Shown here piece by piece: positions 3,261-59,642 of a stretch of DNA of 64,000 nt. Location: the NCBI GenBank assembly GCA_944388045.1, contig CALXHG010000007.1, positions 23,440 to 87,439 on the forward strand. The letters are read 5' to 3'. The DNA is from an uncultured Clostridia bacterium. GTDB lineage: Bacteria; Bacillota; Clostridia; TANB77; CAG-508. Numbering within the stretch: the stretch's first letter is position 1; every line of letters begins with the position of its first letter. Both the position numbers and the translations under genes were made by a program. The notes beneath the pieces were generated by a model, which was not told the origin of the DNA, did no database searches, and worked only from the letters and a program-made list of their open reading frames with translations.

Positions 3261-3600
3261 GGGCTGACTCTTTTAGCAATTTGGCTATTGGGGTCGGTCC
3301 CTTTTTGTGCTGGGGTCGGTCCTAAAATCAAATTCAATATATAAATTGTTTTTTATACCTTATGTGTCGCAACCTACAAAAGAATTTCAATAAGTAGGTT
3401 GCTCCAAATCACATTCACTACGCTCATTTGGTCGCTTACGCGGTATTGCAAAATACTTTATATATTGGTTTATTTTAGGACCGACCCCAGCACAAAAAGG
3501 GACCGACCCCAACAACCACCCCCACAACACCAAAAAAGACCGACCCCAACACAAAAAAAGACCGTCACCAGACAAAGAATACAAAAATAGAACTGACACA
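3261..3600. repeat. Family A composite repeat, copy A1: inverted GGGGTCGGTCCC/GGGACCGACCCC units around a ~155-nt core
   Basis: Forward units at 3290-3301 and 3312-3322. Core at 3323-3477, with hairpin GCAACCTAC(3369-3377)/GTAGGTTGC(3394-3402). Reverse units at 3478, 3499 and 3538. The same architecture and core recur at 38625-38968. Confidence 0.8.
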
Positions 3601-3688: not shown

Positions 3689-4714
3689 ATGTTATATTTA
3701 AAGAGTTTTTTTAGAAAAAAGAGTACAAAAATATATTTGATAATATATAGTGTATTATTAACAACAATTTTTTCAATGTTAGTTTTGATAAATTATTGTA
3801 ATAAATCAATAAATGATGTGTATAAAACAAAATCTTATATACTAATGACATGTAAAGGAGATTACTTTAAAGAAATATCTAAATTAAATGTAGTCAAAGA
3901 AGTAGAAAGAATAATAATTTTTGAAGAAAATGAAAAAGATACTACATTTAAAAATCAATCATATTCTATTATAAGTAAAGATACAACAGTTAATTATGAT
4001 AATGGAGAAAATTATAATGAAATAGTTTGTTGGGAAGATTATGGTATGCCATCTATAAACTCTGCAACAAAGATAATAATTAAACCAGATAAAAATAATG
4101 ATTTAAAGTTAAAAGATAATGAAATAGTATTATCAACAGAGGGGGTAAAAAATAAAAAGCAAGAGACAAAAGACAATTTAAAAGGTAAGAATATTATATT
4201 TAAATATAATGAAAATGATATTGAATTTACTATAAAAGATTATTATGATAGTAATGATTTAGAAATGATGATTTCTGAAAATAAGTTTAATGAATTAAAT
4301 TTAAAAAATAATATATATTCATACAAAATATATGTTGATGATTATCTTAATACAAGTGAAATAAAAGAAAAATTGAAAATTGCAAGTAATTATAATGATA
4401 TAAATATTGGAACAAGAATTAATTTTGATGGTAATGAAAATGCTGATAAAGTGACTAATAGCATTGAATTTAGAAGTGTGTTTGAAATGATAACATTTTT
4501 TTCAATATGCGGTTTTATTATAATATTTATAATAGTTACAGGGAATATTTTATCAGATGAAAAGAAGAATTCAAAGATAGAAAGAGTATTAGGTTATAAT
4601 AAAAAGCAATTAAAATTACATGTAGTAGTAAAGCTAATAAGCTTAATGATTACAGCCTTATTTATACCTCTAATTATTTCATTAATCATAAGTATTATTT
4701 TGAGCTTAAACTAG
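3689..4714 (+). CDS. membrane protein with FtsX-like C-terminal segment (paralog 1)
   Basis: N-terminal TM, ~230-aa ectodomain, then TM-loop-TM (..GNILSDEKKNSKIERVLGYNKKQLKL..) resembling TM2-loop-TM3 of FtsX/MacB permeases. About 75% identical to the 5821..6840 product by eye. Confidence 0.5.
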   Translation: MLYLKSFFRKKSTKIYLIIYSVLLTTIFSMLVLINYCNKSINDVYKTKSYILMTCKGDYFKEISKLNVVKEVERIIIFEENEKDTTFKNQSYSIISKDTTVNYDNGENYNEIVCWEDYGMPSINSATKIIIKPDKNNDLKLKDNEIVLSTEGVKNKKQETKDNLKGKNIIFKYNENDIEFTIKDYYDSNDLEMMISENKFNELNLKNNIYSYKIYVDDYLNTSEIKEKLKIASNYNDINIGTRINFDGNENADKVTNSIEFRSVFEMITFFSICGFIIIFIIVTGNILSDEKKNSKIERVLGYNKKQLKLHVVVKLISLMITALFIPLIISLIISIILSLN

Positions 4715-4895: not shown

Positions 4896-5609
4896 TCAAT
4901 ATTTTATTAAATCAACAATTTTCTTTAAAAAAAGTTTTGAAGAAATCCTTTTGGTATCTGGGAAATATCTTTTTAATATATCTATTTTTGTATATCGAAA
5001 CATAGAATTAAGACTTTTATCAATGGCCCACTTGACTTTTAAATGGTTGGAAATTTGATGCATTTTGGCAATGTGTGGATATAAATCTTTTTCTAAATTA
5101 TTTATACAATTTGGTCTTTTAATGCAATATTTAATACAATCAATTATATATAAATACCCTACACTATTTTTATTAAAATCAAAGTTATTTAAAATGTTAA
5201 TTATAAGCGATTGTGTATTATCATTATTTATTTCTTTATTGAATTGTATTAAATAACTACACAAGGCATCATAATCAATTGGTTTAATAATTATACCCGA
5301 AATCAACTGGATATTCTGCAATTTATTAATTGAATCAGGAAAGGCTGTAATTAGTAAAATTTTGGGTAAAGTTATGTTTTCTTTTAATAGTTTGTTGATT
5401 ATTTCTAAACCGTTTATAATAGGTAAATTAATGTCTAGTAAAATAACATCAGGTTTTAGAAGTTTTATTTTTTGATATGTTTCTAATCCATTAGTTGTAA
5501 TACCTATAACATTTATATTATTTAAATTTTGACTTTTAATAATATTAAAAAGTGATATATCTAAGTCTTTATTGTCATCAGCAATTAATACCTTAATCAA
5601 AACCAACAC
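4896..5609 (-). CDS. orphan response regulator with Spo0A-like C-terminal DNA-binding domain
   Basis: Receiver motifs IADDNKD, ILLDINLP, ITAFPD and IKPIDY. The C-terminus (VGYLYIIDCIKY..., LYPHIAKMH..., KVKWAIDKSL) aligns with the Spo0A_C pattern GYLYLREAI / LYPDIAKK / RVERAIRHAI. The start is a non-ATG codon and uncertain (5609 or 5603). Confidence 0.7.
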   Translation of the reverse strand: MLVLIKVLIADDNKDLDISLFNIIKSQNLNNINVIGITTNGLETYQKIKLLKPDVILLDINLPIINGLEIINKLLKENITLPKILLITAFPDSINKLQNIQLISGIIIKPIDYDALCSYLIQFNKEINNDNTQSLIINILNNFDFNKNSVGYLYIIDCIKYCIKRPNCINNLEKDLYPHIAKMHQISNHLKVKWAIDKSLNSMFRYTKIDILKRYFPDTKRISSKLFLKKIVDLIKY

Positions 5610-5820
5610 CTCTCTAATATTTTATTATAAATTTCTACAAAAATCAATAACTTATATATATATTTCTTTCTATTTTTCTACTTTTTTACAAATAATTTCT
5701 ATTTTTTCTATTTTTGTTGAAAAACGTAAAAAAAAATGATATAAAAAATTTATAAAAATATTTAATTTTAACAGTTATGACAATAAAATTATTTACTATT
5801 ATATGGAGAGGAATATAAAA

Positions 5821-6840
5821 ATGTTATATTTAAAGAGTTTTTTTAGAAAAAAGAGTACAAAAATATTTTTGATAATATATAGTGTGTTATTAACAACAAT
5901 TTTTTCAATGTTAGTTTTGATAAATTATTGCAACAAAATAATTAATGATGTTTATAAGGAAAAATCATATATGTTAATGACAACAAGAGGAGATTATTTA
6001 GAGGAAATATCAAAACTTGATGGAGTTGAAAAAATCGAAAGAATAATTATTTTTGAAGAAAATGAAAGTGATATGACACTAAAAAATTATTCGTTTTCTG
6101 TTGTAGGTGAAGATACGACAATTAATTATGATAATGATGAAAATGGTGAAGAAATAGTCTGTTGGGAAGACTATGGACCAGCCTCTTTTAATGATGCAAT
6201 AAAAGTAATAATAAAATATGACAAAGACAATTTACTAGGATTAGAAGATAATGAAATAGCATTATCTTTAGAAGGGGTAAAATTTAAAAATCAAAATACA
6301 AAAGACAATTTGAAAGGTAAGAATATTCTTTTTAAATATAATGAAAATGATATAGAATTTAGAATAAAAGATTACTACGATAGTAATGATTTAGAAATGA
6401 TGATTTCAGAAAATAAATTTAATGAGTTAAATTCAAAGAGTAATATTTATTCGTATAAAATATATGTTAAGGATTATCTTAATACAAAGGGAATAAAAGA
6501 GAAAATGAGAATGGTAAGTAATTGTAATGATATCGAAATTGATACAAGAATTGATTATGATGCAAATAAAAATGCTGAGAAAGTTTCATTAAGTCTTGAT
6601 TTATGGCAAATGTTTAGTATAATAACATTTTTCTCAATATGTGGATTAATTATAATATTTATAATAATTACAGGGAATATTTTATCAGATGAAAAGAAGA
6701 ATTCAAAGATAGAAAGAGTATTAGGTTATAATAAAAAGCAATTAAAATTACATGTAGTAGTAAAGCTAATAAGTTTAATGATTACAGCCCTATTAATTTC
6801 GCTAATTATTTCATTTATATTAAGATTAATAATGAGTTAA
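5821..6840 (+). CDS. membrane protein with FtsX-like C-terminal segment (paralog 2)
   Basis: Same architecture as 3689..4714. ATG at 5821 is preferred over the ORF-track 5803: it has a GGAGAGG RBS and matches the MLYLKSFF start of paralog 1. Confidence 0.5.
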   Translation: MLYLKSFFRKKSTKIFLIIYSVLLTTIFSMLVLINYCNKIINDVYKEKSYMLMTTRGDYLEEISKLDGVEKIERIIIFEENESDMTLKNYSFSVVGEDTTINYDNDENGEEIVCWEDYGPASFNDAIKVIIKYDKDNLLGLEDNEIALSLEGVKFKNQNTKDNLKGKNILFKYNENDIEFRIKDYYDSNDLEMMISENKFNELNSKSNIYSYKIYVKDYLNTKGIKEKMRMVSNCNDIEIDTRIDYDANKNAEKVSLSLDLWQMFSIITFFSICGLIIIFIIITGNILSDEKKNSKIERVLGYNKKQLKLHVVVKLISLMITALLISLIISFILRLIMS

Positions 6841-7528: not shown

Positions 7529-8221
7529 ATGGAAGAAAAAAGCAAAGTAATACAATTAAAAAATATTCAAAAAACATTTCATACAAAAAACAAAGAAGTA
7601 AATGTTTTAAGAAATTTAAATGCAGAATTTTACGAAGGAAATTTATATGCGGTAATGGGACATAGTGGTAATGGAAAATCAACATTAATACATATTTTAG
7701 GCTTAATAGATGAATGTGATGAAGGAGAATATCAAATATATGGCAAGAATGTAAAAAATTTAAAAGATAAAGATGCATCATATATGAGATTGAAAAATAT
7801 AGGATTTGTTTTTCAAGAATTTAATTTGGTTCCAACGCTAAAAGCATATGAAAATGTTATGGTTCCAATGTTAATAAATAAAGAAATTCAAGCAAAAGAA
7901 AGAAAAGAAAGAGCTATAGAATTGCTATCAAGTGTAGGACTAAAAGAAAGAATAAATCATTTTCCCAAAGAATTATCAGGAGGAGAACAACAAAGAGTTG
8001 CAATAGCTCGTTCTTTAGCCAATAATCCTAATATTATACTTGCAGATGAGCCAACAGGAAATTTAGATGAAAAAAGTGAAAGGGAAATATTTACACTATT
8101 AAAAAAATTAGCAGAAGAAGGAAAATGTGTTATAGTTGTAAGTCATAGTAGTGAAATAAAAAATTATGCAGACAAAGTATACATATTAGATAAAGGAAAA
8201 TTGGAAGGAGAAAATGAGTGA
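7529..8221 (+). CDS. ABC transporter ATP-binding protein (MacB/LolD-like)
   Basis: Walker A GHSGNGKST, signature LSGGEQQR, Walker B ILADEPT. Confidence 0.9.
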   Translation: MEEKSKVIQLKNIQKTFHTKNKEVNVLRNLNAEFYEGNLYAVMGHSGNGKSTLIHILGLIDECDEGEYQIYGKNVKNLKDKDASYMRLKNIGFVFQEFNLVPTLKAYENVMVPMLINKEIQAKERKERAIELLSSVGLKERINHFPKELSGGEQQRVAIARSLANNPNIILADEPTGNLDEKSEREIFTLLKKLAEEGKCVIVVSHSSEIKNYADKVYILDKGKLEGENE

Positions 8222-9480: not shown

Positions 9481-9662
9481 TTGGGCGGTACTTTTTCGTG
9501 TTTGGGAGTGTTTGTTGGGGTCGGTCCCTTTTTGTATTGGGGTCGGTCCCTTTTGTTGCTGGGGTCGGTCCTTTTTGCTATTGGGATCGACCCCAACATA
9601 AAAAAGGACCGACCCCAGCGACCACCCCCAACAAGGAAAAGGGAAAAAAGAGAACTGGCACA
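9481..9662. repeat. Family A repeat, copy A2 (no core)
   Basis: Three forward GGGGTCGGTCC(C) units, a central hairpin and reverse GGACCGACCCC units, then CCACCCCCA and the terminal AAAAAGAGAACTGGCACA. The left end GGGCGGTACTTTTTC is a degenerate inverted copy of that terminus. Confidence 0.8.
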
Positions 9663-15256: not shown

Positions 15257-15287
15257 GAGAAATGGGAGCGATTAGCTCCCATTTCTC
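15257..15287 (+). terminator. intrinsic terminator hairpin
   Basis: GAGAAATGGGAGC-gatta-GCTCCCATTTCTC immediately after the stop codon. Confidence 0.7.
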
Positions 15288-15353
15288 TTCTTGAATAGGA
15301 AAAATCGCTTTTTCCTATTCAAGAAAAGAGCTTCGCTCAAACGGATGCACACA
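15288..15353. repeat. Family C repeat (GAATAGGAAAAA hairpin plus AAAGAG..GCTCAAAC..CACACA tail), copy C1
   Basis: TTGAATAGGAAAAATCGCTTTTTCCTATTCAA plus tail. Related copies at 26480-26540 and, partially, 58287-58313. Confidence 0.6.
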
Positions 15354-29458: not shown

Positions 29459-29469
29459 TAAATTGTTAC

Positions 29470-29689
29470 AATTCAGCAAAAGTTTTTATATATTAATAAT
29501 AAATAAATTTTGAATACGATTGGAGGAAATTTAGAATTTCTTAAATTAATTTTATGGAAAATGTTTGCGTCGAGCGCCAGCGAGGACTAAGTGAAAGGGT
29601 GCCATAAAATTATTTTAGAAATTCTTATATTTCCGCATTGAGTCGAAAAATTTATGCAATTATTAATATATCAAAACTTTTGCTGAATT
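29470..29689 (+). mobile_element. Family B palindromic MITE-like element, copy B1
   Basis: Arms AATTCAGCAAAAGTTTT / CAAAACTTTTGCTGAATT. Inner repeats ATATATTAATA / TATTAATATAT. The core differs from B2 (42681-42896) at about 5 positions. Confidence 0.7.
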
Positions 29690-29843
29690 ATAATAAAAAT
29701 TCTTTCTAAGAATGAATAATATTTTGAAAAAAAGTAAATAATTGTATTAACAAAGAAATAGGAAATAAATAATAAAAAAATAGGAAGTAAAAAAACAAAT
29801 ATTTTTTAATTATTTATACCTTAGGAAAGGAAAGTGTTTAATT

Positions 29844-36762: not shown

Positions 36763-37515
36763 ATGCCAAGATTTTTTGTAAAAGAAAACCAAAAACAAAA
36801 TAACCAAATAACAATAATTGGAGAAGATGTAAATCACATAAAAAATGTACTAAGAAAGCAAATAGGAGACAATATAGAAATATGCAATAAAGATAATAAA
36901 AAATCATATAAATGTGAAATTACAAAAATAGAAGAAAATCAAATTACAACAGAAATTATAGAAGAATTAATATCACAAGAAGACAATATAATAGTTGACA
37001 TATATCAAGGTTTACCAAAAGCAGATAAAATGGAATTAATAATACAAAAATCTGTAGAACTAGGGGCTAATGCAATAATACCAGTAGATATGAAAAGATG
37101 CGTTGTAAAATTAGACTCAAAAAGTGAAGAAAAGAAAATAGAAAGATGGCAAAAAATTTCTGAAAGTGCTGCAAAACAATGTGGCAGAAATAATATACCA
37201 GAAGTAAAACATATAGTAAGTATTAAAGATATATGTAAACTAATCACGAATTATGATGCAATGATAGTTGCTTATGAAAATGAAAAAGAAAATACATTAA
37301 AACATGAACTAACAAAAATTAAACAGGAAAATAAATTTAATAATTTAAAAATTGGAATTGTAATTGGACCAGAAGGTGGACTAGAAGAAAATGATGTTAA
37401 ACTTTTAAAAGAAAGTGGAGCCAAAATTATAACACTAGGTAGCAGAATTCTTAGAACAGAAACAGTAGCACTAAATATGTTAAGTATAATAATGTACGAA
37501 CTTGAAAATAAATAA
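36763..37515 (+). CDS. rsmE: 16S rRNA (uracil1498-N3)-methyltransferase
   Basis: MPRFFV...GEDVNHIKNVLR N-terminus and IVIGPEGGLEENDV SPOUT motif. Confidence 0.85.
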   Translation: MPRFFVKENQKQNNQITIIGEDVNHIKNVLRKQIGDNIEICNKDNKKSYKCEITKIEENQITTEIIEELISQEDNIIVDIYQGLPKADKMELIIQKSVELGANAIIPVDMKRCVVKLDSKSEEKKIERWQKISESAAKQCGRNNIPEVKHIVSIKDICKLITNYDAMIVAYENEKENTLKHELTKIKQENKFNNLKIGIVIGPEGGLEENDVKLLKESGAKIITLGSRILRTETVALNMLSIIMYELENK

Positions 37516-37626
37516 AAACAGCACAATTGTATGAAAAAATAAAACAAAAAGCTTGACTTTTATGCTAAAAATGGTGTAAAATAATAATATTGGAAATTAT
37601 GTTAAGAATTAGAAGGGAGAATAATT

Positions 37627-38193
37627 ATGGCAGGAGTATATATGGCAGGAGATTTTAGAAATGGAACAACATTTGAAATGGATGGAGGAGTATATAGAGT
37701 AGTTGAATTCCAACACGTAAAACCAGGAAAAGGAGCTGCATTTGTTAGAACAAAATTAAAAAATGTAATAACAGGAGCAGTTTTAGAAAAAACATTTAAC
37801 CCATCAGATAAATATCCAGGAGCAGAAATAGAAAAAAGAGCTATGCAATATTTATATAATGATGGAGACTTATATTACTTTATGGATAATAATACTTATG
37901 ACCAAATGCCATTAAATAAAGATGATATAGGAGATTGTTTAAAATATTTAAAAGAAAATATGGAGGTTACAATACTTTCATTTAAAGGAAAAGTATTTGC
38001 AGTAGAACCACCAATATTTGTAGAATTAGAAGTAACATATACAGAACCTGGATTTGCAGGAAATACTACTACAACATCTGGAAAACCAGCAAAATTAGAA
38101 ACAGGATTAGAATTACAAGTTCCAATGTTCATAAATATTGGAGATATTATAAGAATAGATACACGTACATGTGAATATATGGAAAGAGTGTAG
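37627..38193 (+). CDS. efp: elongation factor P
   Basis: [40 protein letters not shown], with the conserved KPGKG loop. Confidence 0.95.
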
Positions 38194-38375
38194 AAACTAA
38201 AAAAACGCGAGCTAAAAAACAAAGTCCGCGTTTTTATTTAAAATTAAAAAATTTTAAATTTATTACTAATGTTTATAGGTAGCCTTTTAAAACCTATATA
38301 TTATAGTTTTAAAAAATTGTTTTACTACTTACTATGTGTGTCATTAGAGCTAATTAAGAAAGGAAGAAAAATAAT

Positions 38376-38603
38376 ATGTCAGAAAAAGAATTATTAGAAA
38401 AAATTGAAAAATTAGAAAAAAGAGTTGAAGAACTTGAAAAAGATATGAAAAATATGAAAGATGATTTTTTCATATATGATGATGGTTTAGAAGATGATGA
38501 AGATTTTGCATATGATGATGATTTTGAAGAAGATGAAATTAATGATGATTGTGATGATGATGATAACTGCAGTGGATGTTGTTCAAATTGTAAAGGATGC
38601 TAA
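38376..38603 (+). CDS. small acidic protein with C-terminal six-Cys cluster
   Basis: 75 aa. Coiled-coil-like N-terminus, Asp/Glu-rich middle, and ends CDDDDNCSGCCSNCKGC. RBS GAAAGGAAG. Confidence 0.45.
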   Translation: MSEKELLEKIEKLEKRVEELEKDMKNMKDDFFIYDDGLEDDEDFAYDDDFEEDEINDDCDDDDNCSGCCSNCKGC

Positions 38604-38624
38604 TTAAAAAGTTAACCATGTGTT

Positions 38625-38968
38625 GGGGTCGGTCCTTTTTTGTGCTGGGGTCGGTCCCTTTTGTTGCTGGGGTCGGTCCTAAATTAAACCAATATATAAA
38701 GTGTTTTTTATACCTTGTGTGTCGCAACCTACAAAAGAATTTCTATAAGTAGGTTGCTCCAAATCGCATTCGCTACGCTCATTTGGTCGCTTACGCGGTA
38801 TTGCAAAACACTTTATATATTGGTTTAATTTAGGACCGACCCCAATAGAAAAAGGGACCGACCCCAGACGAAAAAAGGACCGACCCCAGCAGACACACAG
38901 CAAAAAAAACCGACCACAATAGAAAAAGGACCGCTTCACAACAAAATGAAAAAAAGAGAACCGGTACA
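38625..38968. repeat. Family A composite repeat, copy A4 (with core)
   Basis: Three forward GGGGTCGGTCC units. Core at 38680-38832 has a perfect outer stem AAACCAATATATAAAGTGTTTT / AAAACACTTTATATATTGGTTT and the hairpin GCAACCTAC/GTAGGTTGC. Reverse units follow, then the terminal AAAAAGAGAACCGGTACA. Confidence 0.85.
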
Positions 38969-39075
38969 AAATTGTCTGATTAATAAAAAATTAAGAAAAA
39001 AATAAGTTTCAAAATTTGACAAAATATCAAAAAATAAGTATACTATATTTGTAATAAAAATAAAAGAGGATAAAT

Positions 39076-39915
39076 ATGATAAATATATTATTATGTGGAA
39101 ACAAAAAAGTATTTGATGGAGCCCTAACGGAGCTAATTTCAATAACAAATAAAACAAAAGAAACAATTAATTGTTATATATTAACAATGGATTTATCTAG
39201 ACTTAAACCTGAATATGTATGTATTACAGATGAGCAAATTGATTTTTTAAATAAAGTAGTACGAAGTAAAAATTCAGAAAATAAAGTAACAAAAATAGAT
39301 GTTACAGATTTATATGAAGAAGAATTTATGAAATGCAAAAACGAAAGTGCATATTGCACACCATATACTTTATTAAGATTGCTTATAGATAAAATACCAA
39401 ATATTCCAGACAAAATATTATATTTAGATATAGACATGATGTTTAACAAAGATATATCTGAATTATATAATATTGATATTGAAGAATATGAATATGCAGC
39501 AGTAAGAGAAAAATATGGAAAATGGTTTATAAGACCAGATTATATTAATGCTGGAATGTTATTAATTAATATGAAAATTGTAAGAAAAACAAAATTATTT
39601 GAAAAAGCAAGAGATTTAATCAGAAGAAAAAAAATGTTATTTGCAGACCAAGATGCAGTATTTAGGTCTACAACAAAGAAAAAATTATTGCCTAACAAAT
39701 TTAATGAACAATCAAAGTTCAATAAAAAAGATACTGTACTATGTCACTTCTGTAAGAGGCTATTATGGACACCATATCCACATACAGAAAATTTTAAACA
39801 ATGGAATGTAGAAGAAGTACACAAAGTACTAAAATGCTATGCATTTGATAAAGATTTAGAAGAATATTTAAATTTAAAAAAAGAATTTGAAAGTTATATA
39901 AGAGAGGAAGTTTGA
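39076..39915 (+). CDS. glycosyltransferase family 8 protein
   Basis: LYLDIDMMF (DxD), NAGMLLINM and FADQDAV motifs. Confidence 0.8.
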   Translation: MINILLCGNKKVFDGALTELISITNKTKETINCYILTMDLSRLKPEYVCITDEQIDFLNKVVRSKNSENKVTKIDVTDLYEEEFMKCKNESAYCTPYTLLRLLIDKIPNIPDKILYLDIDMMFNKDISELYNIDIEEYEYAAVREKYGKWFIRPDYINAGMLLINMKIVRKTKLFEKARDLIRRKKMLFADQDAVFRSTTKKKLLPNKFNEQSKFNKKDTVLCHFCKRLLWTPYPHTENFKQWNVEEVHKVLKCYAFDKDLEEYLNLKKEFESYIREEV

Positions 39916-41721
39916 ATGGAAAATAATATTATACCGATTTTTTTTGCAATAGATGATGGCTATACACCATTTTTAGCAGTAGCTTTGCACTCGTTAATAG
40001 ATAATGCAAGTAAAGAATACAATTATTGCATAAAAGTTTTACATACAAATGTTACAGAAGAACATATGAAGCAAATTAAAACATATGAAAATGAATATGT
40101 AAATATCGAATTTGTAGATTTAAATTATTATATAGAAAAAGTAAAAGATAAATTATATACAAGAGATTATTATACAAATACAACATATTTTAGATTATTT
40201 TTACCAGAACTATATCCACAATATAATAAAGCATTATATTTAGATAGCGACATAGTTGTATTAGGAGATATTTCAGAATTATTTAATACAGATATGGGAA
40301 CAAACTTAATTGCAGCAGCACCAGATGATATAATTCAATGTAATAAAGTATTTCAAGATTATGCAGAATTAGTTGTAGGAGTAGATTCCTATAAAAACTA
40401 TTTTAATGCAGGTGTTTTACTAATGAATTTAGACCAACTAAGAAAATTTAAATTCCAGGAGAAGTTTATTCATTTATTAACAACTGTAAAATACTCTGTT
40501 GCACAAGACCAAGACTATTTAAATAGATTATGCAAAGGTAGAGTAACACTAATTGACCATAAATGGGATTGTATGCCATTAGTAAATAATGAAACAAAAA
40601 GAGAAGACATAAAATTAGTCCATTATAATTTTGCATACAAACCATGGCATTTTGAAGATGTATTATATAAAGAATTTTTCTGGAAATATGCAGAAAAAAC
40701 ACAATATTATGAACAAATTTTAAAAATAAAAAATGAATATACAGAAGAACAAAAATTTAAAGACAGAGAAGCTGAGCAACAATTAAGATTACTTGCAGAA
40801 AAAGAAAACTCATGTGTTGGTGATGATAGAAGAAAATTATCAATAGATGAAAATAATAAAAAGATTGAAAAATCAAAAGACAGATTAGAAGTTTTAGAAA
40901 AAATAAAACAATTAGAAAAAGAAGGAAAATTTGATTTAGATGTAGAAAATGATCCACCAAATGTTGTACTAACTCCAGATAATGTAGATTATTTAAACAC
41001 AAAAAGACTAAATAGATGGAAAACAGCATTTGCCAATAAAGTTGGAGAAAAATTTCTTGATGAAATTATAAAAAATAATAAATTAATTATAAAAGAAGTT
41101 AATGGAATAGAAAATCTTGCAAATATTGAAAATGGTGCAGTAATAACATGTAACCACTTTAATCCATTTGATTCATTTGCAGTAGAAAAAGTATTTAAAG
41201 ATTGTGGACTTTATAAAGAAAAAAAATTATATAAAGTTATAAGAGAAGGTAATTATACTAATTTCTCTGGATTTTATGGATTTTTATTTAGAAATGCAGA
41301 TACATTGCCATTAAGTTCAAACAGAAGAACAATGGTTGAATTTATAAAAGCAGTAGATGTAATCTTACAAAGAGGAGATTGTATACTAATTTACCCAGAA
41401 CAAAGTATGTGGTGGAATTATACAAAACCAAAGCCATTAAAAATTGGAGCATATAAATTTGCCAAAAGAAATAATGTACCAATTATTCCAATATTTATAA
41501 CAATGAGAGACAGTGAAATAATAGGAGAAGATGGTTTTCCAGTACAAGAGTATTATATTAATATAGAAAAGCCAATATATCCTAATAAAAAATTATCAGA
41601 AAGAGAAGATGCAGAAATAATGAGACAAAAGAATTTTGATACATGGAAAAAAGTATATGAAGACTTTTATAAAATTCCATTAGAATATACAACTGTAAAG
41701 AGAGAAGTTATAAATAATTAG
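39916..41721 (+). CDS. fusion protein: N-terminal GT8 glycosyltransferase plus C-terminal PlsC-like acyltransferase
   Basis: GT8 motifs IFFAIDDGY, LYLDSDIVV, NAGVLLMNL and AQDQDYLN. A charged linker follows. Acyltransferase motifs CNHFNPFD (HX4D) and IYPEQS. Confidence 0.75.
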   Translation: MENNIIPIFFAIDDGYTPFLAVALHSLIDNASKEYNYCIKVLHTNVTEEHMKQIKTYENEYVNIEFVDLNYYIEKVKDKLYTRDYYTNTTYFRLFLPELYPQYNKALYLDSDIVVLGDISELFNTDMGTNLIAAAPDDIIQCNKVFQDYAELVVGVDSYKNYFNAGVLLMNLDQLRKFKFQEKFIHLLTTVKYSVAQDQDYLNRLCKGRVTLIDHKWDCMPLVNNETKREDIKLVHYNFAYKPWHFEDVLYKEFFWKYAEKTQYYEQILKIKNEYTEEQKFKDREAEQQLRLLAEKENSCVGDDRRKLSIDENNKKIEKSKDRLEVLEKIKQLEKEGKFDLDVENDPPNVVLTPDNVDYLNTKRLNRWKTAFANKVGEKFLDEIIKNNKLIIKEVNGIENLANIENGAVITCNHFNPFDSFAVEKVFKDCGLYKEKKLYKVIREGNYTNFSGFYGFLFRNADTLPLSSNRRTMVEFIKAVDVILQRGDCILIYPEQSMWWNYTKPKPLKIGAYKFAKRNNVPIIPIFITMRDSEIIGEDGFPVQEYYINIEKPIYPNKKLSEREDAEIMRQKNFDTWKKVYEDFYKIPLEYTTVKREVINN

Positions 41722-41849
41722 GAATTATAATTGCTACCACTTTGAGATTTTCTCCTTTCAGTCAAAAATACAAATAGAAACATGGATAATTTAAAGATTT
41801 ATTTGTTAATGTTAACAAATAAGTAAAGATTAGAAGGGAAATATACAAA

Positions 41850-42629
41850 ATGGAGAAACAGACTTATTATTATTCTGATGAATTAAATGACGAATTTTCT
41901 AAAGCAAAGATTGAACCAAGAATAATTGATGAAAATTACAAATTTTTGCATAAAAATATATTATGGAACTTAGCACATTTTTTAGTACAAAATGTGCTAA
42001 GTGTGCCTTTAAAATATTTATATGCAAAAATAAAATTTAGAGTAAAATATATAGGAAAAGAAAAATTAAAGAAATATAAAAAACAAGGATATTTTGTATA
42101 TGCAAATCACACTCAAGCTTTTGCAGACACATTTTTAACATCAAATGCAATATATCCAAAAAGAAATTATTTAATTGTAAATCCAGAGAATGTTTCGATG
42201 AAATTTTTAGGAAACTTTGTTCAAATGTTTGGAGCAATACCAATTCCTAACAATAAAAATGGAATGAAAAATTTTTTAGATTCAATAAAATATCATATTT
42301 CAAAAGGACAATCTATTACGATATATCCAGAAGCTCATATTTGGCCTTATTATACAAAAATTAGACCTTTTAGAAATGTTTCTTTTAGATATCCTATAGA
42401 ATTGGAAACTCCTGCTTTTTGCATAACCAACACATATCAGAAAAGGGGAAAAGATAAGGTAAGAATTACTTCATACATAGATGGACCTTTTTGGGCAGAT
42501 GAAAATTTAAATTCTATTAAAGATAAAAAGCAAGATTTAAGAGATAAAATATATAATCAAATGGTGGAAAGAAGCAAAAATAGTACATATGAATTTATTG
42601 AATATAAAAAGGTTAAAAATGAAAGTTAA
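41850..42629 (+). CDS. acyltransferase-like protein (PlsC/LPLAT superfamily, tentative)
   Basis: YANHTQAFAD (His..Asp block with atypical spacing) and IYPEAH. Similar in length to the acyltransferase part of the preceding fusion. Confidence 0.45.
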   Translation: MEKQTYYYSDELNDEFSKAKIEPRIIDENYKFLHKNILWNLAHFLVQNVLSVPLKYLYAKIKFRVKYIGKEKLKKYKKQGYFVYANHTQAFADTFLTSNAIYPKRNYLIVNPENVSMKFLGNFVQMFGAIPIPNNKNGMKNFLDSIKYHISKGQSITIYPEAHIWPYYTKIRPFRNVSFRYPIELETPAFCITNTYQKRGKDKVRITSYIDGPFWADENLNSIKDKKQDLRDKIYNQMVERSKNSTYEFIEYKKVKNES

Positions 42630-42680
42630 AATAAAGTCTCAAACTCAAAGAACAATAGCGGACTTTTACAATGAAAATAA

Positions 42681-42896
42681 TTTGCTGAAATTTTTTATAT
42701 ATTAATAATAAATAAATTTTGAATACGATTGGAGGAAATTTAGAATTTCTTAAATTAATTTTATGGAAAATGTTCGCGTCGAGCGTTAGCGAGGACTAAG
42801 TGAAAGGGTGCCATAAAATTATTTTAGAAATTCTTATATTTACGTATTGAGTCGAAAAATTTATGCAATTATTAATATATAAAAAATTTCAGCAAA
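42681..42896 (+). mobile_element. Family B palindromic MITE-like element, copy B2
   Basis: Arms TTTGCTGAAATTTTTT / AAAAAATTTCAGCAAA. Same inner repeats and core as B1. Ends 41 nt before the mutL ATG. Confidence 0.7.
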
Positions 42897-44773: not shown

Positions 44774-44826
44774 TAAAAATTTCTCACTAAACTGTAATGA
44801 AAAAATTTAGAATTTACTTAAAAAAG

Positions 44827-45309: not shown

Positions 45310-45316
45310 ACAAAAA

Positions 45317-45390
45317 GGGACCGACCCTGGTAGGCAAAATGGCACTGGACAGAAAAGGGACCGACCCCAATAAAAAAAAGGACCGACCCC
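45317..45390. repeat. Family A repeat units, copy A5
   Basis: Three (G)GGACCGACCC(C/T) units directly upstream of the glyQS RBS. Confidence 0.7.
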
Positions 45391-45427
45391 AATAAAATCC
45401 AATGAATAAACGAAAGGAGTATTTTTT

Positions 45428-49029: not shown

Positions 49030-49041
49030 CACTAAAAATAT

Positions 49042-49299
49042 TTACAATTCCCCACCAGATTTTGTCGTAAAGTAATTATATATTAATATTTTATAAATTT
49101 TTCAGTTCAATACAATATTTAAGAATTTGTAATATGATTTCTTGAGCCTCTTTCACTCAGACCCTCTCGTAAACTCGAGTACCGTGAACATCCCTCAATA
49201 AATCATATAACAAATTCTAAAATATTTCCAATCACATTCAAAATTTATTCAATATTAATATATAATTACTTTACGCCAAAATCTTGTGGGGAATTGTAA
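49042..49299 (-). mobile_element. Family B palindromic MITE-like element, copy B3 (second subfamily, opposite orientation)
   Basis: 35-nt arms TTACAATTCCCCACCAGATTTTGTCGTAAAGTAAT / ATTACTTTACGCCAAAATCTTGTGGGGAATTGTAA (2 mismatches). The core differs from B4 at one position. Confidence 0.7.
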
Positions 49300-49837
49300 C
49301 GAGAAATGTCGAAACATGTCAATGAAAAGTTTTAAAATTAAATAAACTATATTGAATTTGCAATTAAATTATGTTACTATAAATACGTACTAAGATTTTT
49401 AGTATGTATTTATTTTTTATTTTCAAAACTTTTGTTTATTAAATATTTTAATTCTTAAATTTTCCATATTATTGATAAAATAATATTATATATTTAATAA
49501 TTTATACTTTTATAATATTTTAAAAATTTATTAAACAGTTTATTTAGCGCGCAATAAACTAATATTTTAAATTATATAAAATTATAAAAATTATAAAAAT
49601 TGATGTTAATTTTATTAAAAAGGAAAAAATTAATTTAATCTTTTATTAAGAAAAAAGTAATATTAATTTGTCACATACTAAAATTCAAAGTAAAAAAATT
49701 TATTTTAAATAATATTTAGTTAAAATAATTATATGTAATTTTTATATGAATTAAATTAATTCAATATGTTAGATTTTGTCGTAAATCTTATTCATTTATA
49801 AATATATTATACGAGAAAGAAAGGAATGAAAAAATAT

Positions 49838-51760
49838 ATGAAAATAAAAGTAGTTAGTGTAATAACTATATTAGTAATAATATTATTAAATACAATATTA
49901 CAAGTACCAGTATTTGCAATACCAATGCAAGAAGCATATATAGAAAATTTAGGAGATTGTGAATATCATTTACAATATTGGAAAGAACCTGATGGAATAT
50001 GGAGTTATATAGTAACAACAGTTGTAGGATATAGAATTAATGGAAATTTACATTATGCATATTGCTTGCAAAGAGAGAAAAAAGGTGTAGGAGGAGAGCA
50101 AGGAAGTTATAGTGTAAATATATCTGATATGTTAAAAGACGAAAAAATTTGGAGAGCCATTATAAATGGATTTCCATATAAAAGACCAAACGAATTGGGT
50201 GTAATTAATGAACAAGATGCATTTGTTGCTACTAAGCAAGCTATATATAGTGTTATATATGGTTGGGATGTTAATACACATTTTAGAGGTGCTGATGAAA
50301 GAGGATGGCAAATTGTTAATGCAATAAAAAATATTGTAGATAAAGCTAGAAATGGAACAGAAAAGCCTAATCAATCTAATGTGTTAACAATAAAACAAGT
50401 TGGAGAATTTAAAAAAGAAAATAATGAATATTATTCTCAAGAATATAGTGTAAGTAGTAGTGTTGATATGGAAAATTATATAATTACAAATTTAGAAAAT
50501 TTTCCAAAAGGAACAATAGTTACAAATAAAAATAATCAATCACAAACAGAATTTTCATCAGGTCAAAATTTTAAAATTCTTATACCAACAAAACAAATTT
50601 TAGAAAATATTGAAGGAACTATAAAAATAAATGGAAAGGTAAAAACATATCCAGTATTTTATGGAGAGAGTTATGACCCAAATCTTCAGGATTATGCATT
50701 AACATATGATGCATATGAAACTATAGGAGCTGAAATAAAAATGAGAGTAAATGCATATAAATCCAAAATAACAGTTATAAAAAAAGATTCTGAAACAAAT
50801 AAACCAATTGAAGGAGTAGAGTTTAATATAAAATATAAAGATGGAACACCAATTGGAACATATAAAACAGATAAAAACGGAATGATAACAGTATCTAGTT
50901 TAAAACAAGGTATAATAATATTAACAGAAACCAAAACAAAACAAGAATATGTTTTAGATAGTACACAAAAAGAAATTGTTATTGAATATGATGCAGAAAA
51001 AACTGTAGAAATAAAAAATGATAGAAAAAAAGGTAATATCATAATAAAAAAAGTAGACAAAGATAATAATGAAATAACATTAAGTAAAGTAGAATTTGAA
51101 TTAATAGATGCAAATGGAAACATTATAAAACATTTAGTTACAGATGAGAATGGAATAGCCAAGGTAGAAAATATTGATATAGGTAAGTACATATTAAAAG
51201 AAACAGTAACACAAAGCGAATATAATATTGAAGTTGGTCAATATGATATTATTGTTGAATGGAACGAAACATTTAATTTAGAAGTAGAAAACGAAAAAAT
51301 TAAAGGTAAAATTAGAATTTTAAAAATTAGTGAAGATGATAATTTAATTAATGGAACTCCAGCAGGAACTCCTATTGAAAATGTTAAATTTATTATTTAT
51401 GATGAAAATGGAGAAATAGTAGATACACTTATTACTAAAGCAGATGGAATTGCAATATCTAAAGATTTAGTAAAGGGAAAATATATTATAAAAGAAGTAG
51501 AAACTGGAGAAGAATATGAATTAAACGAAAAAGACTTTTCTGTAGAAATAAAAAAAGATGGAGAAGTAATAGACTTAGAAATAAGTAATAAATCTAAAAC
51601 ACCTCCACCAGAAGAACCACCTGAAGAAGAAAAGCCACCAGAAGAGCCTCCAGAGGAAGAACCTCCTGTTGAAGAACCACCAGAAGAACAGCCAAAAGAG
51701 AAACCACCTGTAGAAGAACCTCCAGAAGAACCAAAAAAACTACCTGTTACTGGATATTAA
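49838..51760 (+). CDS. surface adhesin: signal peptide, thioester-like domain, 3 SpaA/CnaB-type repeats, Pro/Glu-rich stalk and LPVTG, but no membrane anchor
   Basis: YAYCLQ and ATKQAIYS resemble thioester-domain Cys and Gln motifs. Repeats follow the pattern KKDSETNKPIEGVEF...TDKNG...L..G.Y.L.E. Ends ...KKLPVTGY* with no hydrophobic or charged tail. Start 49838 or 49826. Confidence 0.7.
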   Translation: MKIKVVSVITILVIILLNTILQVPVFAIPMQEAYIENLGDCEYHLQYWKEPDGIWSYIVTTVVGYRINGNLHYAYCLQREKKGVGGEQGSYSVNISDMLKDEKIWRAIINGFPYKRPNELGVINEQDAFVATKQAIYSVIYGWDVNTHFRGADERGWQIVNAIKNIVDKARNGTEKPNQSNVLTIKQVGEFKKENNEYYSQEYSVSSSVDMENYIITNLENFPKGTIVTNKNNQSQTEFSSGQNFKILIPTKQILENIEGTIKINGKVKTYPVFYGESYDPNLQDYALTYDAYETIGAEIKMRVNAYKSKITVIKKDSETNKPIEGVEFNIKYKDGTPIGTYKTDKNGMITVSSLKQGIIILTETKTKQEYVLDSTQKEIVIEYDAEKTVEIKNDRKKGNIIIKKVDKDNNEITLSKVEFELIDANGNIIKHLVTDENGIAKVENIDIGKYILKETVTQSEYNIEVGQYDIIVEWNETFNLEVENEKIKGKIRILKISEDDNLINGTPAGTPIENVKFIIYDENGEIVDTLITKADGIAISKDLVKGKYIIKEVETGEEYELNEKDFSVEIKKDGEVIDLEISNKSKTPPPEEPPEEEKPPEEPPEEEPPVEEPPEEQPKEKPPVEEPPEEPKKLPVTGY

Positions 51761-56773: not shown

Positions 56774-58079
56774 ATGTATAGATATAAGATTGAAGATTTA
56801 AAGCAATGGAAAAATTCTAAAGACAGAAAACCTTTAATAATAAGGGGAGCAAGACAAGTTGGTAAAACTTGGCTTATGAAAGAGTTTGGAAAAAAATATT
56901 ATGAAAAATGTGCATATATAAATTTTGATGATAATATTAGAATGGAACAATTATTTTCTGATGATTTCAATATCGAAAGAATTATACAAGGACTAAAAAT
57001 AGAATCTGGAGTAAATATTGAACCAGAAAATACATTAATTATTTTTGATGAAGTACAAGAAGTACCAAAAGCTTTAACTGCATTAAAATATTTTTATGAA
57101 AAAGCTAATAAATATCAAATAATTGCAGCAGGTTCTTTACTTGGAGTTGCAATGCATGAGGGAACCTCTTTCCCTGTTGGAAAAGTAGATTTTCTAGATT
57201 TATATCCATTAAATTTTTACGAATTTTTGGAAGCATTAGGTGAACGGAGAATTAGTAAAGCTTGTTAAGAGCAATGATATAGATATGATTACTGTATTTG
57301 CAGATAAATTAAAATCATATTTAAAACAATATTTTTATATAGGTGGAATGCCAGAAGTTATTGCTGCATATATACAGAATAAGGATTTTAATGAAGTAAG
57401 AAGAAAGCAAAAATTATTATTAGAAGCTTATGAGCAAGACTTTTCAAAACATGCTCCCAATAATGTTGTACCTAGAATAAGACAATTATGGAATAATATA
57501 CCAACACAGCTTGCTAAAGAAAACAAAAAGTTCATATATGGTTTAGTCAAAGAAGGTGCAAGAGCAAGAGAATATGAATTAGCATTATCATGGTTAATAG
57601 ACTGTGGTTTAGTTTACCAAGTAAACAGAGTAAATGATTGCAAAATTCCTCTATCTGCATATCAAGATTTCAATGCATTCAAATTATATTTATTAGATGT
57701 TGGTTTATTATGTGCAATGGCAGATGTAGATGCAACAACTATTATTGAGGGTAATGAAATTTTTGTGGAATTTAAAGGGGCTTTAACTGAACAATATGTT
57801 TTAACAGAATTAAAAACTAACACAACTGAAAATGTTTATTATTGGTCATCAGATAGAGGCTCTTCAGAAGTTGATTATATAATTCAATTTGGAAGGAATA
57901 ACATTCCAATAGAAGTAAAAGCAAATGAAAATTTGCAAGCTAAAAGCTTAAAAACATTTGTGCAAAAATATAATACGAAAATAAATGTAAGAACATCAAT
58001 GGCAAATTATAGAAAAGAAGATTGGCTAATTAACATACCTTTATATTTGATTGGAAATATAAGAGAAATATTGAAATAA
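56774..58079 (+). pseudogene. AAA ATPase with DUF4143 domain, +1 frameshift at CGG_A
   Basis: P-loop GARQVGKTW and IIFDEVQ lie in ORF 56774..57268. DUF4143-type GGMPEV...DFSKHAP...KENKKFIYG lies in ORF 57240..58079. Frames join if the C of CGG (57245-57247) is skipped: ...EALGE-GELVKLVK... Confidence 0.8.
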
Positions 58080-58110
58080 AAGATTATTATCAGGCAGATC
58101 ATACTTAGAT

Positions 58111-58242
58111 ATGAAAGAAAATCCATATTTTGAAATAGAAGAAAGTGCTAAATATGGAGACCAATTAATTACACTTTGTACGTGCGATTATTGGGCAAAA
58201 GATGCAAGATTGCTTATAGTTGCAAAAGAGATCACAAAATAA
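58111..58242 (+). pseudogene. sortase C-terminal remnant
   Basis: A 43-codon ORF ending ...GDQLITLCTCDYWAKDARLLIVAKEITK* resembles the sortase catalytic TLxTC strand and following Arg strand. The N-terminal ~150 aa are absent. Confidence 0.5.
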
Positions 58243-58286
58243 ATATTCCCTGGAAATGACATTGTCATTTCCAGGGAAATTTTACT

Positions 58287-58313
58287 GAATAGGAAAAAGC
58301 GATTTTTCCTATC
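58287..58313. repeat. Family C repeat, partial copy C3
   Basis: GAATAGGAAAAAGCGATTTTTCCTAT. Confidence 0.4.
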
Positions 58314-58471
58314 CTATAACAAATTAAAGAAAATCAAAGATTTTCTTATTTGTTATAGATTCAAATTCGAAGTACAAAGTTACAATAAAATTTAGTTCTA
58401 AAAAATAGAAAAATCGCATATTATAATTTAGTATAAAGAAATTAATTAAAGTGAAAGGAAGTAATTAAATT

Positions 58472-58774
58472 ATGATAGAAGAAAGAAAAAATGTTAATGT
58501 AAATACAAATGTTGTACAAAATATAATTTTAGAAAATAGAGAAAAATTAAGTGTATCTGGAGTAAATGATGTGCTTAGTTTTGATGACCAAGTTGTAATG
58601 ATAGATACAGAACTAGGTTTACTTACAGTTAAAGGAGAGAATATTAAAATAAACAAATTAAGTTTAGATACATCAGAAGTTGTTGTTGAAGGTGAAATAT
58701 CAAGTTTAAATTATAGTCAAAAAAGTCAAGAAAAAAATAGTGGAAGTTCAATATTAAGTAAAATTTTTAAATAA
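58472..58774 (+). CDS. yabP: sporulation protein YabP
   Basis: ILENREKLSVSGVNDVLSFDDQVVMIDTELGLLTVKGENIKI is the typical YabP pattern. Followed by yabQ-divIC, as in Bacillus. Confidence 0.85.
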   Translation: MIEERKNVNVNTNVVQNIILENREKLSVSGVNDVLSFDDQVVMIDTELGLLTVKGENIKINKLSLDTSEVVVEGEISSLNYSQKSQEKNSGSSILSKIFK

Positions 58775-58803
58775 AATTAATATTAATATGAGAAAGGTAA
58801 AAA

Positions 58804-59292
58804 ATGGTAGAAAATCAAGCACTTATATTTATTGTTTTTACATTTACAGGAATTCTATTAGGAATATTATTTGACTTTTTTAGAGTTTTTAGAAGAACAT
58901 TTAACACAATTGATATTATTACATATTTAGAAGATATATTATACTGGATTTTAGCAGGAATAATTGTTTTGTATAACATATGGTTTTTTAATAATGGAGA
59001 AATTAGATTCTTTATGATTATAGGAATTGTAATGGGAGCGATTATCTATTCTTTGCTATTTAGTCCTATTTTAATAAAGATAGAAACAATGATTTTAACT
59101 AAATTAAAATATATTATAATGTTTTTTTATAAAATAATTATAATTCCTATAGAAAAAATAATAAATTTTTTTGCTTTTTACACTAGTAAAATTAATATTA
59201 TAGCAAAAAAACAAAATAATAAATTATCAAAAATAAGTATTTTAAAGAAAATTAAAAATAAAAAGGGGAATTTTAGAAAAAATGTAGAATAA
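58804..59292 (+). CDS. yabQ: spore cortex biosynthesis protein YabQ
   Basis: Polytopic membrane protein with GILLGILFDFFRVFRR. Synteny with yabP and divIC. Confidence 0.75.
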   Translation: MVENQALIFIVFTFTGILLGILFDFFRVFRRTFNTIDIITYLEDILYWILAGIIVLYNIWFFNNGEIRFFMIIGIVMGAIIYSLLFSPILIKIETMILTKLKYIIMFFYKIIIIPIEKIINFFAFYTSKINIIAKKQNNKLSKISILKKIKNKKGNFRKNVE

Positions 59293-59326
59293 TATATTAT
59301 ATGAGTTTTTTGTTTGGAGAGTACAT

Positions 59327-59611
59327 ATGAAAATTAAAGTAAAATTATTAGTTCCCATATTCATTATAATATTAATTATATGGGTAGTTGTTTTAATAAA
59401 ACAGCAAATAAATATTGCACAATATCAAAAAGAAATAGACGATTTAACTTCAAAAATAAATGTAGCACAAGAAGAATTAAACCAAAATAAACAAAATTTA
59501 GAAGAAGAAATTAATAAATCAAATTCATTAGAATATATAGAAAAAGTTGCACGTGAAAAACTAGGAATGTATTTACAAAATGAAAGAGTTTATGTCGATA
59601 GTAATTACTAA
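59327..59611 (+). CDS. divIC: septum formation initiator (DivIC/FtsB family)
   Basis: N-terminal TM, a coiled coil, then EKVAREKLGMYLQNERVY. Confidence 0.75.
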   Translation: MKIKVKLLVPIFIIILIIWVVVLIKQQINIAQYQKEIDDLTSKINVAQEELNQNKQNLEEEINKSNSLEYIEKVAREKLGMYLQNERVYVDSNY

Positions 59612-59642
59612 AAATCCCTAAAGTTTAAACGTTTAGGGATTT
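59612..59642 (+). terminator. intrinsic terminator after divIC
   Basis: AAATCCCTAAA-(9 nt)-TTTAGGGATTT followed by a T-rich tract. Confidence 0.65.

Follow-up and report, generated by a model that had tools for sequence, protein, structure and literature searches.

Copies of the element in the window

The stretch of DNA analysed here, called the window, comprises 64,000 nucleotides (nt) of contig CALXHG010000007.1 from an uncultured Clostridia bacterium (assembly GCA_944388045.1, forward strand, positions 23,440 to 87,439). It carries a palindromic element in which a near-constant core sits between complementary arms that differ from copy to copy. A hidden Markov model (HMM) of the family, scanned across the window, finds exactly four complete copies (Table 1), at the positions and in the orientations given by an earlier reading of the sequence (the original prediction). 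As that reading had also noticed, each copy lies 3' of a plus-strand gene; the four genes carry SpoIID, Acyltransferase, PGM_PMM (GlmM) and Rho domains.

The copies fall into two subfamilies that are ~72-74% alike. Copies 1 and 2 (subfamily A) differ at five core positions (149/154 identical). Copies 3 and 4 (subfamily B) have identical cores (157/157) and one difference across a 186-nt repeat. These counts agree with those claimed earlier. Inner repeats ATATATTAATA/TATTAATATAT bracket all four cores, again as described, and 8 of the 10 matches to ATATATTAATA in the window (1.07 expected) flank them. The units also fold as single long rods (-76.4 and -100.2 kcal/mol; z = -10.6 and -17.7), and none of 200 shuffled sequences folds as well. 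No open reading frame (ORF) of at least 80 aminoacids lies inside the four copies. A scan of the window with Rfam 15 gives no match to the units at gathering score, and only sub-threshold generic hairpin (microRNA-type) matches at E up to 10.

Other parts of the first description need amendment. The extents were right for copies 2 and 4 and too short for copies 1 and 3, which reach common outer termini (G)TTACAATTC...GAATT(G/A)TAA(C/T). Perfect complementarity of the arms fails in copy 3. Nor are all arms unrelated, since those of copies 1 and 2 are diverged versions of one standard arm, GTTACAGTTCAGTAGGAAATTTTG, of a related genome (bin71, below). The outer GTTAC termini, the mirrored evolution of the arms in place, the conservation of the core at orthologous loci and its flipping had all gone unnoticed.

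Table 1. Features of the palindromic family in the window
Feature	Position	Strand	Remarks
Copy 1, subfamily A, full element	29465..29694	+	Outer termini GTTACAATTC / GAATTATAAT
Copy 1, arms	29465-29487 and 29672-29694
Copy 1, inner repeats	29488-29498 and 29661-29671
Copy 1, conserved core	~29499-29660
Copy 2, subfamily A	42681..42896	+	Arms TTTGCTGAAATTTTTT / AAAAAATTTCAGCAAA; outer termini decayed
Copy 2, inner repeats	42697-42707 and 42870-42880
Copy 3, subfamily B, full element	49041..49300	-	Termini TTTACAATTC / GAATTGTAAC; core invertible
Copy 3, arms			35 nt, 33/35 complementary (2 mismatches)
Copy 3, inner repeats	49078-49088 and 49253-49263
Copy 4, subfamily B	61265..61482	-	Arms TGTCCTATAACAGGTG / CACCTGTTATAGGACA; no recognisable GTTAC termini
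Copy 4, inner repeats	61281-61291 and 61456-61466
Solo right-arm remnant, truncated fifth copy	44774..44798	+	TAAAAATTTCTCACTAAACTGTAAT; directly after mutL stop codon
Unoccupied target site	62161..62168	.	TATAATAT; bin71 holds a 232-bp element here between two such 8-mers

Distribution, target duplications and empty sites

A census with AATAAATTTTGAATNNGATTGGA, using one genome per species, returned at least 102 loci, nearly all from metagenome-assembled genomes of low-GC uncultured Clostridia, with two chance matches among the matches listed. BLAST with the cores in these loci raised the number to at least ~140 copies or fragments, 53 of them in BRZ_HH__bin29 (bin29) and 31 in BRZ_ER__bin71 (bin71 or ER71). 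The window is ~97% identical to bin71, whose loci L101 and L077 correspond to window 57029-64000 and 36979-42768. Many bin71 contigs start or stop inside an element, which is expected of a high-copy repeat. The left half of copy 2 is identical to its ortholog in L077, and the start of mutL lies ~40 nt past the end of the right arm of this copy.

The complete element runs from GTTAC to GTAAC, is 176-352 bp long and holds no ORF. Its terminal inverted repeats, GTTACAATTCACAGC...GCTGTGAATTGTAAC, are found in many genomes and in window copies 1 and 3, and have decayed in copies 2 and 4. Among 18 elements bounded by GTTAC...GTAAC, 10 are flanked by a perfect 8-bp direct target duplication and 3 more by one matching at 7/8 positions, where the chance of an 8/8 duplication in this DNA is ~1e-4. 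Elements from metagenomes add further 8/8 duplications. Solo ends and truncated copies also occur; the remnant behind mutL is 95% identical to bin71 arms, and a comparable one lies at L068 1568-1611.

Several sites could be compared with and without the element. In L101, positions 5148-5379 form a 232-bp element between two copies of TATAATAT, and at the corresponding place the window has a single TATAATAT, free of element and hairpin alike. In bin29 (L070) the spacer downstream of spoIID is ~70 nt long and hairpin-free where copy 1 sits. L041 has nothing in its fabF-accB spacer, where three other species have the element and a further two have different inserts. Since the empty sites are hairpin-free and the duplication is an 8-bp direct one, the arms arrive with the element. 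They belong to the unit that moves, and come neither from a palindrome already in place nor from inverted copying of the flank.

We therefore regard the units as a new family of non-autonomous DNA transposons (miniature inverted-repeat transposable elements, MITEs) of low-GC uncultured Clostridia, of a kind already known.

Paired change of the arms

The bin71 arms form a continuum around GTTACAGTTCAGTAGGAAATTTTGATATATTAATA, with many departures mirrored in the opposite arm (L001, L035, L093, L068, L045 and window copy 1). Copy 1 therefore has arms of the standard type that have diverged. The arm of copy 2 resembles that of L016 minus ~12 nt, and this deletion too is mirrored.

Orthologous copies, meaning the same insertion in different species, record such changes in place. 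In set A (L028, L029 and L062), 19 arm columns are mirrored and 3 one-armed between GN76 and XCR1, and 19 are mirrored and 5 one-armed between NV29 and GN76, where independent mutation would give ~3 coincident changes. One of the mirrored differences is a 4-nt insertion, another a block change. Set E has 5 mirrored against 3 one-armed changes, and set B a mirrored two-base change.

In a rod alignment of 26 sequences, pairing holds in 97% of cells and double changes occur at 32 of 55 pairs; 200 cells changed on both sides versus ~30 on one. Most double changes are swaps from A-U to U-A, for which no wobble route is possible. Standing arm mismatches (G.T 34, A.C 29, transversion-type 113) show no RNA-type wobble bias. 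Both the mirrored insertions and deletions and the missing wobble intermediates favour a process in DNA, in which one arm is copied from the other, over compensatory selection on an RNA.

Inversion of the core

The core inverts relative to its arms. At the copy 4 locus, the bin71 ortholog (L101, ~4236-4458) has a core identical over ~170 nt and inverted relative to rho and coatF. The arms of the two differ at mirrored positions, and nearby intergenic DNA is ~15% diverged. For copy 3, contigs from different samples with identical GlmM and the same arms show both orientations, that of the window in L111, L112 and L114 and the opposite one in L110, L113 and L115. The arm-mismatch states of these contigs vary: C,T on the left and A,G on the right in the window, C,T and A,T in L110, and C,G on the left in L113. 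That these states differ among flipped strains implies that the core turned several times independently, by exchange within the copy-specific arms and with conversion alongside.

In bin29 the core is reversed relative to the arms in 3 of ~30 copies, visible because the two arms of this genome differ in type. The core of L076 is likewise reversed with respect to L003. Copies 1, 2 and 4 keep the window orientation in all close strains examined (seven for copy 4). The arms are longest (35 nt plus inner repeat) in copy 3, whose core is the one found flipped in such strains.

Many strain contigs of copies 2, 3 and 4 end inside the element. Several (among L104, L105, L110 and L119-L122; copies 2-4) have deletions, duplications or a 60-nt insertion exactly at the element apex, which reflects either true instability at this tip or faulty assembly of a hairpin that is both repeated and invertible.

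Core conservation and orientation

At orthologous loci the ~155-nt cores are 97-99% identical, against 57-82% for the arms and 50-90% for the adjacent 80-nt flanks. Set A reaches 151-152/153, and Chk24 compared to ERR716 148/153. Paralogous cores in the genomes of the ortholog sets are less alike than the orthologs, at 93-95%, so the copies are vertically inherited and each is near-constant. In copy-rich genomes the cores are 96-98% alike. The conserved blocks are asymmetric, with GAAT..GATTGGA on one side, GTATTGA.C.GAAAAATTTAT on the other, and an apex with TGTTC and GTGAAAG. They persist though arm copying tends to erase asymmetry, which argues for selection on the core, probably purifying.

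The core strand that reads AATAAATTTTGAAT..GATTGGA is antisense to co-directional genes in 49 cases and sense in 9 (p = 9e-8), with orthologs counted separately and fewer than 58 independent loci. The split is 18:1 antisense in bin29 alone and mixed, 8:5, in bin71 plus the window. In the three bin29 copies with reversed arms the core is still antisense. Because the core can flip, the bias more likely reflects selection on orientation than a bias of insertion. The core may thus influence transcription or be influenced by it; a connection with replication direction in these gene-strand-biased genomes is also possible.

A promoter-like TTGAAT-16-TAGAAT lies in invariant core columns, although its 9/12 match is no better than in shuffled sequence, and a scan for promoters and terminators in this AT-rich DNA gave 3 sites for 3.1 expected. 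The core was also considered as a small ORF. One subfamily has a frame of 33-38 codons; its start and frame are not conserved, and insertions and deletions between the subfamilies break it, as judged by eye.

Proposed mechanism and points against it

From the outside in, the element consists of the terminal inverted repeat (consensus GTTACAATTCACAGC), a variable arm, the AT-rich inner palindrome GATATATTAATA and the core, an imperfect hairpin of ~155 nt. It inserts with an 8-bp direct target duplication, carrying its complementary arms along. One arm may then template the other, by polymerase template switching or by intramolecular recombination between the inverted repeats, and the same process would invert the spacer, that is, the core. 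Both routes yield the same products, and their part here is read from the alignments rather than directly observed. The arms would thus drift freely as a complementary pair while purifying selection kept the asymmetric core constant. In copy-rich genomes, recent spread or conversion between copies may add to core uniformity.

Arm copying, drift and a constrained core would together produce near-identical cores beside copy-specific, almost perfectly complementary arms. We consider this account as a whole, transposon and arm copying together, to be likely. It was this combination that puzzled the original prediction, which rightly held that it requires more than independent point mutation; arm-to-arm copying, a constrained centre and some nesting largely resolve it. 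Of the three origins proposed there, arm-defined lineages come closest. In copy-rich genomes a small number of arm types is common to many copies, an outcome that the prediction itself had named as speaking against a special insertion mechanism. Its other contrary outcome, arms present at empty sites as ordinary terminator hairpins, was not seen, three empty sites being without a hairpin.

Several points weigh against this reading. In the window (as predicted), ~0.8 Mb of related loci and 0.7 Mb of metagenome matches, there is no transposase with matching ends, and the proposed search for an ORF flanked by the element ends found none there. Copies 2 and 4 lack recognisable GTTAC termini, and the 8-mers flanking copies 1 (AATAAATT / AAAAATTC) and 3 match at only 5-6 of 8 positions. 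Purifying selection is judged from four ortholog sets only. Selection for pairing would also give mirrored changes, so that the case for arm-to-arm DNA copying depends on the mismatch spectrum and the mirrored insertions and deletions. Finally, copies 3 and 4 have identical cores in arms without detectable similarity. Their cores would be of recent common ancestry, by conversion between copies or by independent movement of the core, and drift of the arms alone is insufficient for this pair unless cores are exchanged or self-mobile.

A parent insertion sequence (IS) with the same ends was found neither in the window nor in loci L001-L102 nor in the metagenome matches. Ten window ORFs compared with Pfam included no transposase, and no long repeats were found within genomes. 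Pairs of terminal repeats up to 4 kb apart proved to be truncated copies or chance pairs. The only long pair in the metagenome scan, 2 kb in L165, encloses a 607-aminoacid ORF, of ATPase/nuclease type by eye, and in L256 ordinary genes lie between the terminal repeats. Plasmid and phage collections gave no real match to the element. An 8-bp duplication fits several transposase families.

Chassis, nesting and possible mobility of the core

A scan of metagenomes with GTTACAATTCACAGC returned 120 stretches, many of them chance matches. Among them are at least 17 short elements with the same termini and without this core. These include minimal coreless hairpins of 43-51 bp (e.g. L206 11539-11585, duplication AATCAAAA), coreless elements of 85-87 bp (L156, L178) and elements of 133-369 bp with unrelated GC-rich centres (L152, L164, L245, L199, L216, L228, L234, L244, L191). 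Counted with them are diverged relatives of the present core, in L142, L179 and L239. As the same termini bound different centres or none, the core is one cargo of a generic chassis.

Elements also nest in each other, in several cases directly behind the GTTACAGTTC of a further terminal repeat (L206 7667, L002 7880, L102 1094), and L092 is nested in another palindrome that resembles a terminal repeat. In ES101, a coreless 86-bp element (L002 7880-7965) has one central TATTAATA, and composite copies there read TATTAATA-core-TATTAATA. An ancient event in which the core entered the middle of the chassis and made a palindromic duplication of 8 bp would fit this pattern.

The pattern in ES101 leads to the possibility that the ~155-nt core is itself mobile. 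With ends TTGAATAAATTTT / AAAAATTTATGAAA, it would insert at the centre of pre-existing palindromes (hairpin MITEs, possibly terminators) and duplicate the palindromic TATTAATA, which would then look like an inverted repeat, the arms being the palindrome landed in. The nested insertions in L092, L206 and L102 fit this idea, as do the same core in the unrelated arms of copies 3 and 4 and the invariance of helix 2 (AATAAATTTT / AAAATTTAT), expected of transposase-binding ends. However, non-palindromic 8-mers beside the core are always inverted and never direct (bin29, L013, L025, L028, L030, L041). No arm is found anywhere as a stand-alone hairpin, the empty sites have none, and the arms demonstrably change in situ.

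The rho/coatF spacer, where copy 4 lies, carries a hairpin in relatives, which also suits a self-mobile core. In four relatives (CoatF 81-84% identical) this convergent spacer is 33-66 nt long. The hairpins in it are terminator-like, with A and T runs, and no two of the four share a stem. That the arms of copy 4 are an old terminator hosting the core is possible at low probability, since the stems of the relatives are unrelated and the arms lack the T-run of those terminators. The earlier suggestion of insertion into pre-existing palindromes finds no support for terminator-type hairpins, with empty sites hairpin-free in L101, at the copy 1 locus in bin29 and in set E. It has some support as nesting in palindromic elements of the same chassis (L092, L206, coreless L002). 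Solo movement of the core in the present day has no positive evidence among the copies compared, and we consider a self-mobile core somewhat unlikely.

Some further observations concern modular elements and other repeats. A 352-bp variant in bin29 (L054 964-1315, L037, L089, L051) has an extra module of ~100 nt between outer repeat and inner palindrome, which contains the GC-rich hairpin GCGGGCGAACACTGTTCGCCC; the variant is further evidence of modular or nested build-up. A distant relative in L030 (~7560-7780), with a different apex, end blocks CGGTCGCATTCGAATTC... and ...TTCTCGGCT and terminus GAATAGTAAC, occupies the fabF-accB spacer that houses the main family in other species. Spacers of the fab operon appear to be recurrent landing sites.

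A second palindromic family is present in the window at 3264-3576, 9491-9623, 23300-23607, 38599-38946 and 45313-45419. It consists of up to 14 tandem 22-nt units (TTGGGGTCGGTCCCTTTTTGTA or the complement GGGACCGACCCCAATAGAAAAA) and has no Rfam match. At 3264-3576 and 38599-38946, two inverted arrays surround a GC-richer centre of ~125 nt, 94% identical between the two sites. Positions 15280-15351 and 26469-26540 (81% identical) hold a repeat of 72 nt that contains the hairpin TTGAATAGGAAAAA...TTTTTCCTATTCAA, and similar sequence adjoins elements in L014, L083 and L100. Window 3689-4714 and 5803-6840 are tandem paralogs with a weak FtsX-like C-terminal domain and a 300-nt stretch that is 84% identical.

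What the core may be

The core might be an orientation-sensitive module maintained by the host, either a structured RNA gene or a promoter-bearing switch, that the hairpin chassis spreads and that can be flipped. Four things speak for this. Orthologous copies differ less in the core than in the coding DNA beside it; its asymmetric invariant blocks persist; it has a 49:9 orientation relative to neighbouring genes that holds even where the arms are reversed; and near-identical strains have both orientations upstream of a surface-protein gene. That gene (window 49826-51760, TED and SpaA domains) lies ~530 nt downstream of copy 3 and contains, at 51605-51730, 15-nt tandem repeats rich in CCA, CCT, GAA and GAG codons (Pro/Glu). 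Such a module seems to us unlikely.

A different reading makes the rod a functional structured RNA, with arm complementarity that would result from compensatory evolution under selection for pairing. It would account for the paired cells and covarying pairs of the rod alignment, for the conserved unpaired blocks (GATTGGA, GTATTGA.C.GAAAAATTTAT, GTGAAAG), and for a core that is constant at orthologous loci and oriented with respect to genes. Within the core, one strand has 32 G.U against 5 A.C cells, and one core pair shows the series C-G / U-G / U-A. Yet the strand that favours G.U is usually antisense to the neighbouring genes, and no Rfam family matches. The mismatches of the arms are free of wobble bias on either strand (34 vs 29), multi-base insertions and deletions are mirrored, and most double changes of the rod go from A-U to U-A, without a wobble intermediate. 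A structured RNA as the source of the complementarity is accordingly quite improbable in our judgement.

The core could also be a programmed inverton, flipped by a recombinase at the inner repeats, whose orientation would control the neighbours through TTGAAT-16-TAGAAT. The two orientations of copy 3 in assembled contigs of near-identical strains across samples, the position of the hexamers in invariant columns and the surface-protein gene downstream would all suit such a switch. Against it, the arm mismatch outside the inner repeat is swapped or homogenised in flipped strains, which places the exchange points in the copy-specific arms and not at a fixed site. Flipping is seen in the longest-armed copy and not in copies 1 and 2, nor in the seven close strains of copy 4. 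Most copies lie between housekeeping genes, no recombinase was identified, and the promoter match does not exceed that of shuffled sequence. We hold a programmed switch to be very unlikely.

Lastly, that insertion itself makes an inverted duplication of the flank, another of the earlier proposals, is scarcely credible given the direct 8-bp duplications of clean copies and the single TATAATAT at the empty site; complementarity does sometimes extend past the GTTAC termini (L092, L001), and in L092 the extension resembles another terminal repeat, which indicates nesting.

Relation to known systems and implications

Bacterial MITEs with a conserved hairpin include bcr1 of the Bacillus cereus group, ERIC of enterobacteria and Correia of Neisseria (PMC3184786). 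Among these, bcr1 is ~155 bp long, with compensatory base changes and a 5-bp duplication, and ERIC and Correia duplicate TA (PMC3184786). The present element resembles them in being short, non-coding, multicopy and intergenic, with terminal inverted repeats, direct duplications and a long hairpin. Copies of the known families are often 3' of genes and co-transcribed (PMC3184786). The present element differs in its GTTAC...GTAAC termini and 8-bp duplication. Its centre is the most conserved part, rather than the ends only, and flips, and its termini carry many unrelated centres.

Template switching between the arms of inverted repeats is known to homogenise and extend arms and to invert the spacer (PMC8604942, PMC13100816, PMC7202029). 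The same outcomes are found here, along with clustered multi-base changes and recurrence at one site. Published cases have arms of ~10-16 bp and spacers of a few bases, whereas here the arms are 16-60 bp, the spacer is 155 nt inside a transposon, and the process is one that we infer.

The flagellar, cwpV and cmr switches of C. difficile, and RecV, belong to invertible DNA switches (PMC7446863). As in those, a segment of ~150 bp lies between inverted repeats of ~20 bp or longer and occurs in both orientations among close relatives. The C. difficile switches are single-copy, with a dedicated recombinase and fixed sites upstream of a regulated operon, in contrast to the dozens of mobile copies with exchange points in copy-specific arms seen here. 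IS1397 and ISKpn1, according to the work cited in PMC3184786, insert in REP/BIME palindromic units, and are similar in placing mobile DNA at the centre of a palindrome, here as nesting in related elements (L092, L206). They are autonomous IS3-family elements with a defined loop target, unlike the ordinary insertions here, whose empty sites have no palindrome.

What looked like a new mechanism of insertion is thus explained by known processes, namely transposition, arm-to-arm copying and selection on the centre, the latter two as proposed above. Interest remains in a 155-nt core that flips, is strongly conserved and is biased in its orientation, and in the modular build of the chassis. Arm homogenisation and inversion of the spacer are recorded in this natural family with unusual clarity, over arms of tens of bases and a 155-nt spacer, in orthologous series across species and in flips at strain level. 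In practice, the element breaks metagenome assemblies of these genomes and may cause misassemblies at the apex.

In uncultured gut Clostridia, the core makes a good candidate for a functional module, RNA or DNA, not described before. It is absent from Rfam, 97-99% conserved where flanks diverge by 10-50%, and strongly oriented. Were it the orientation-sensitive module outlined above, these bacteria would carry dozens of mobile, invertible regulatory cassettes.

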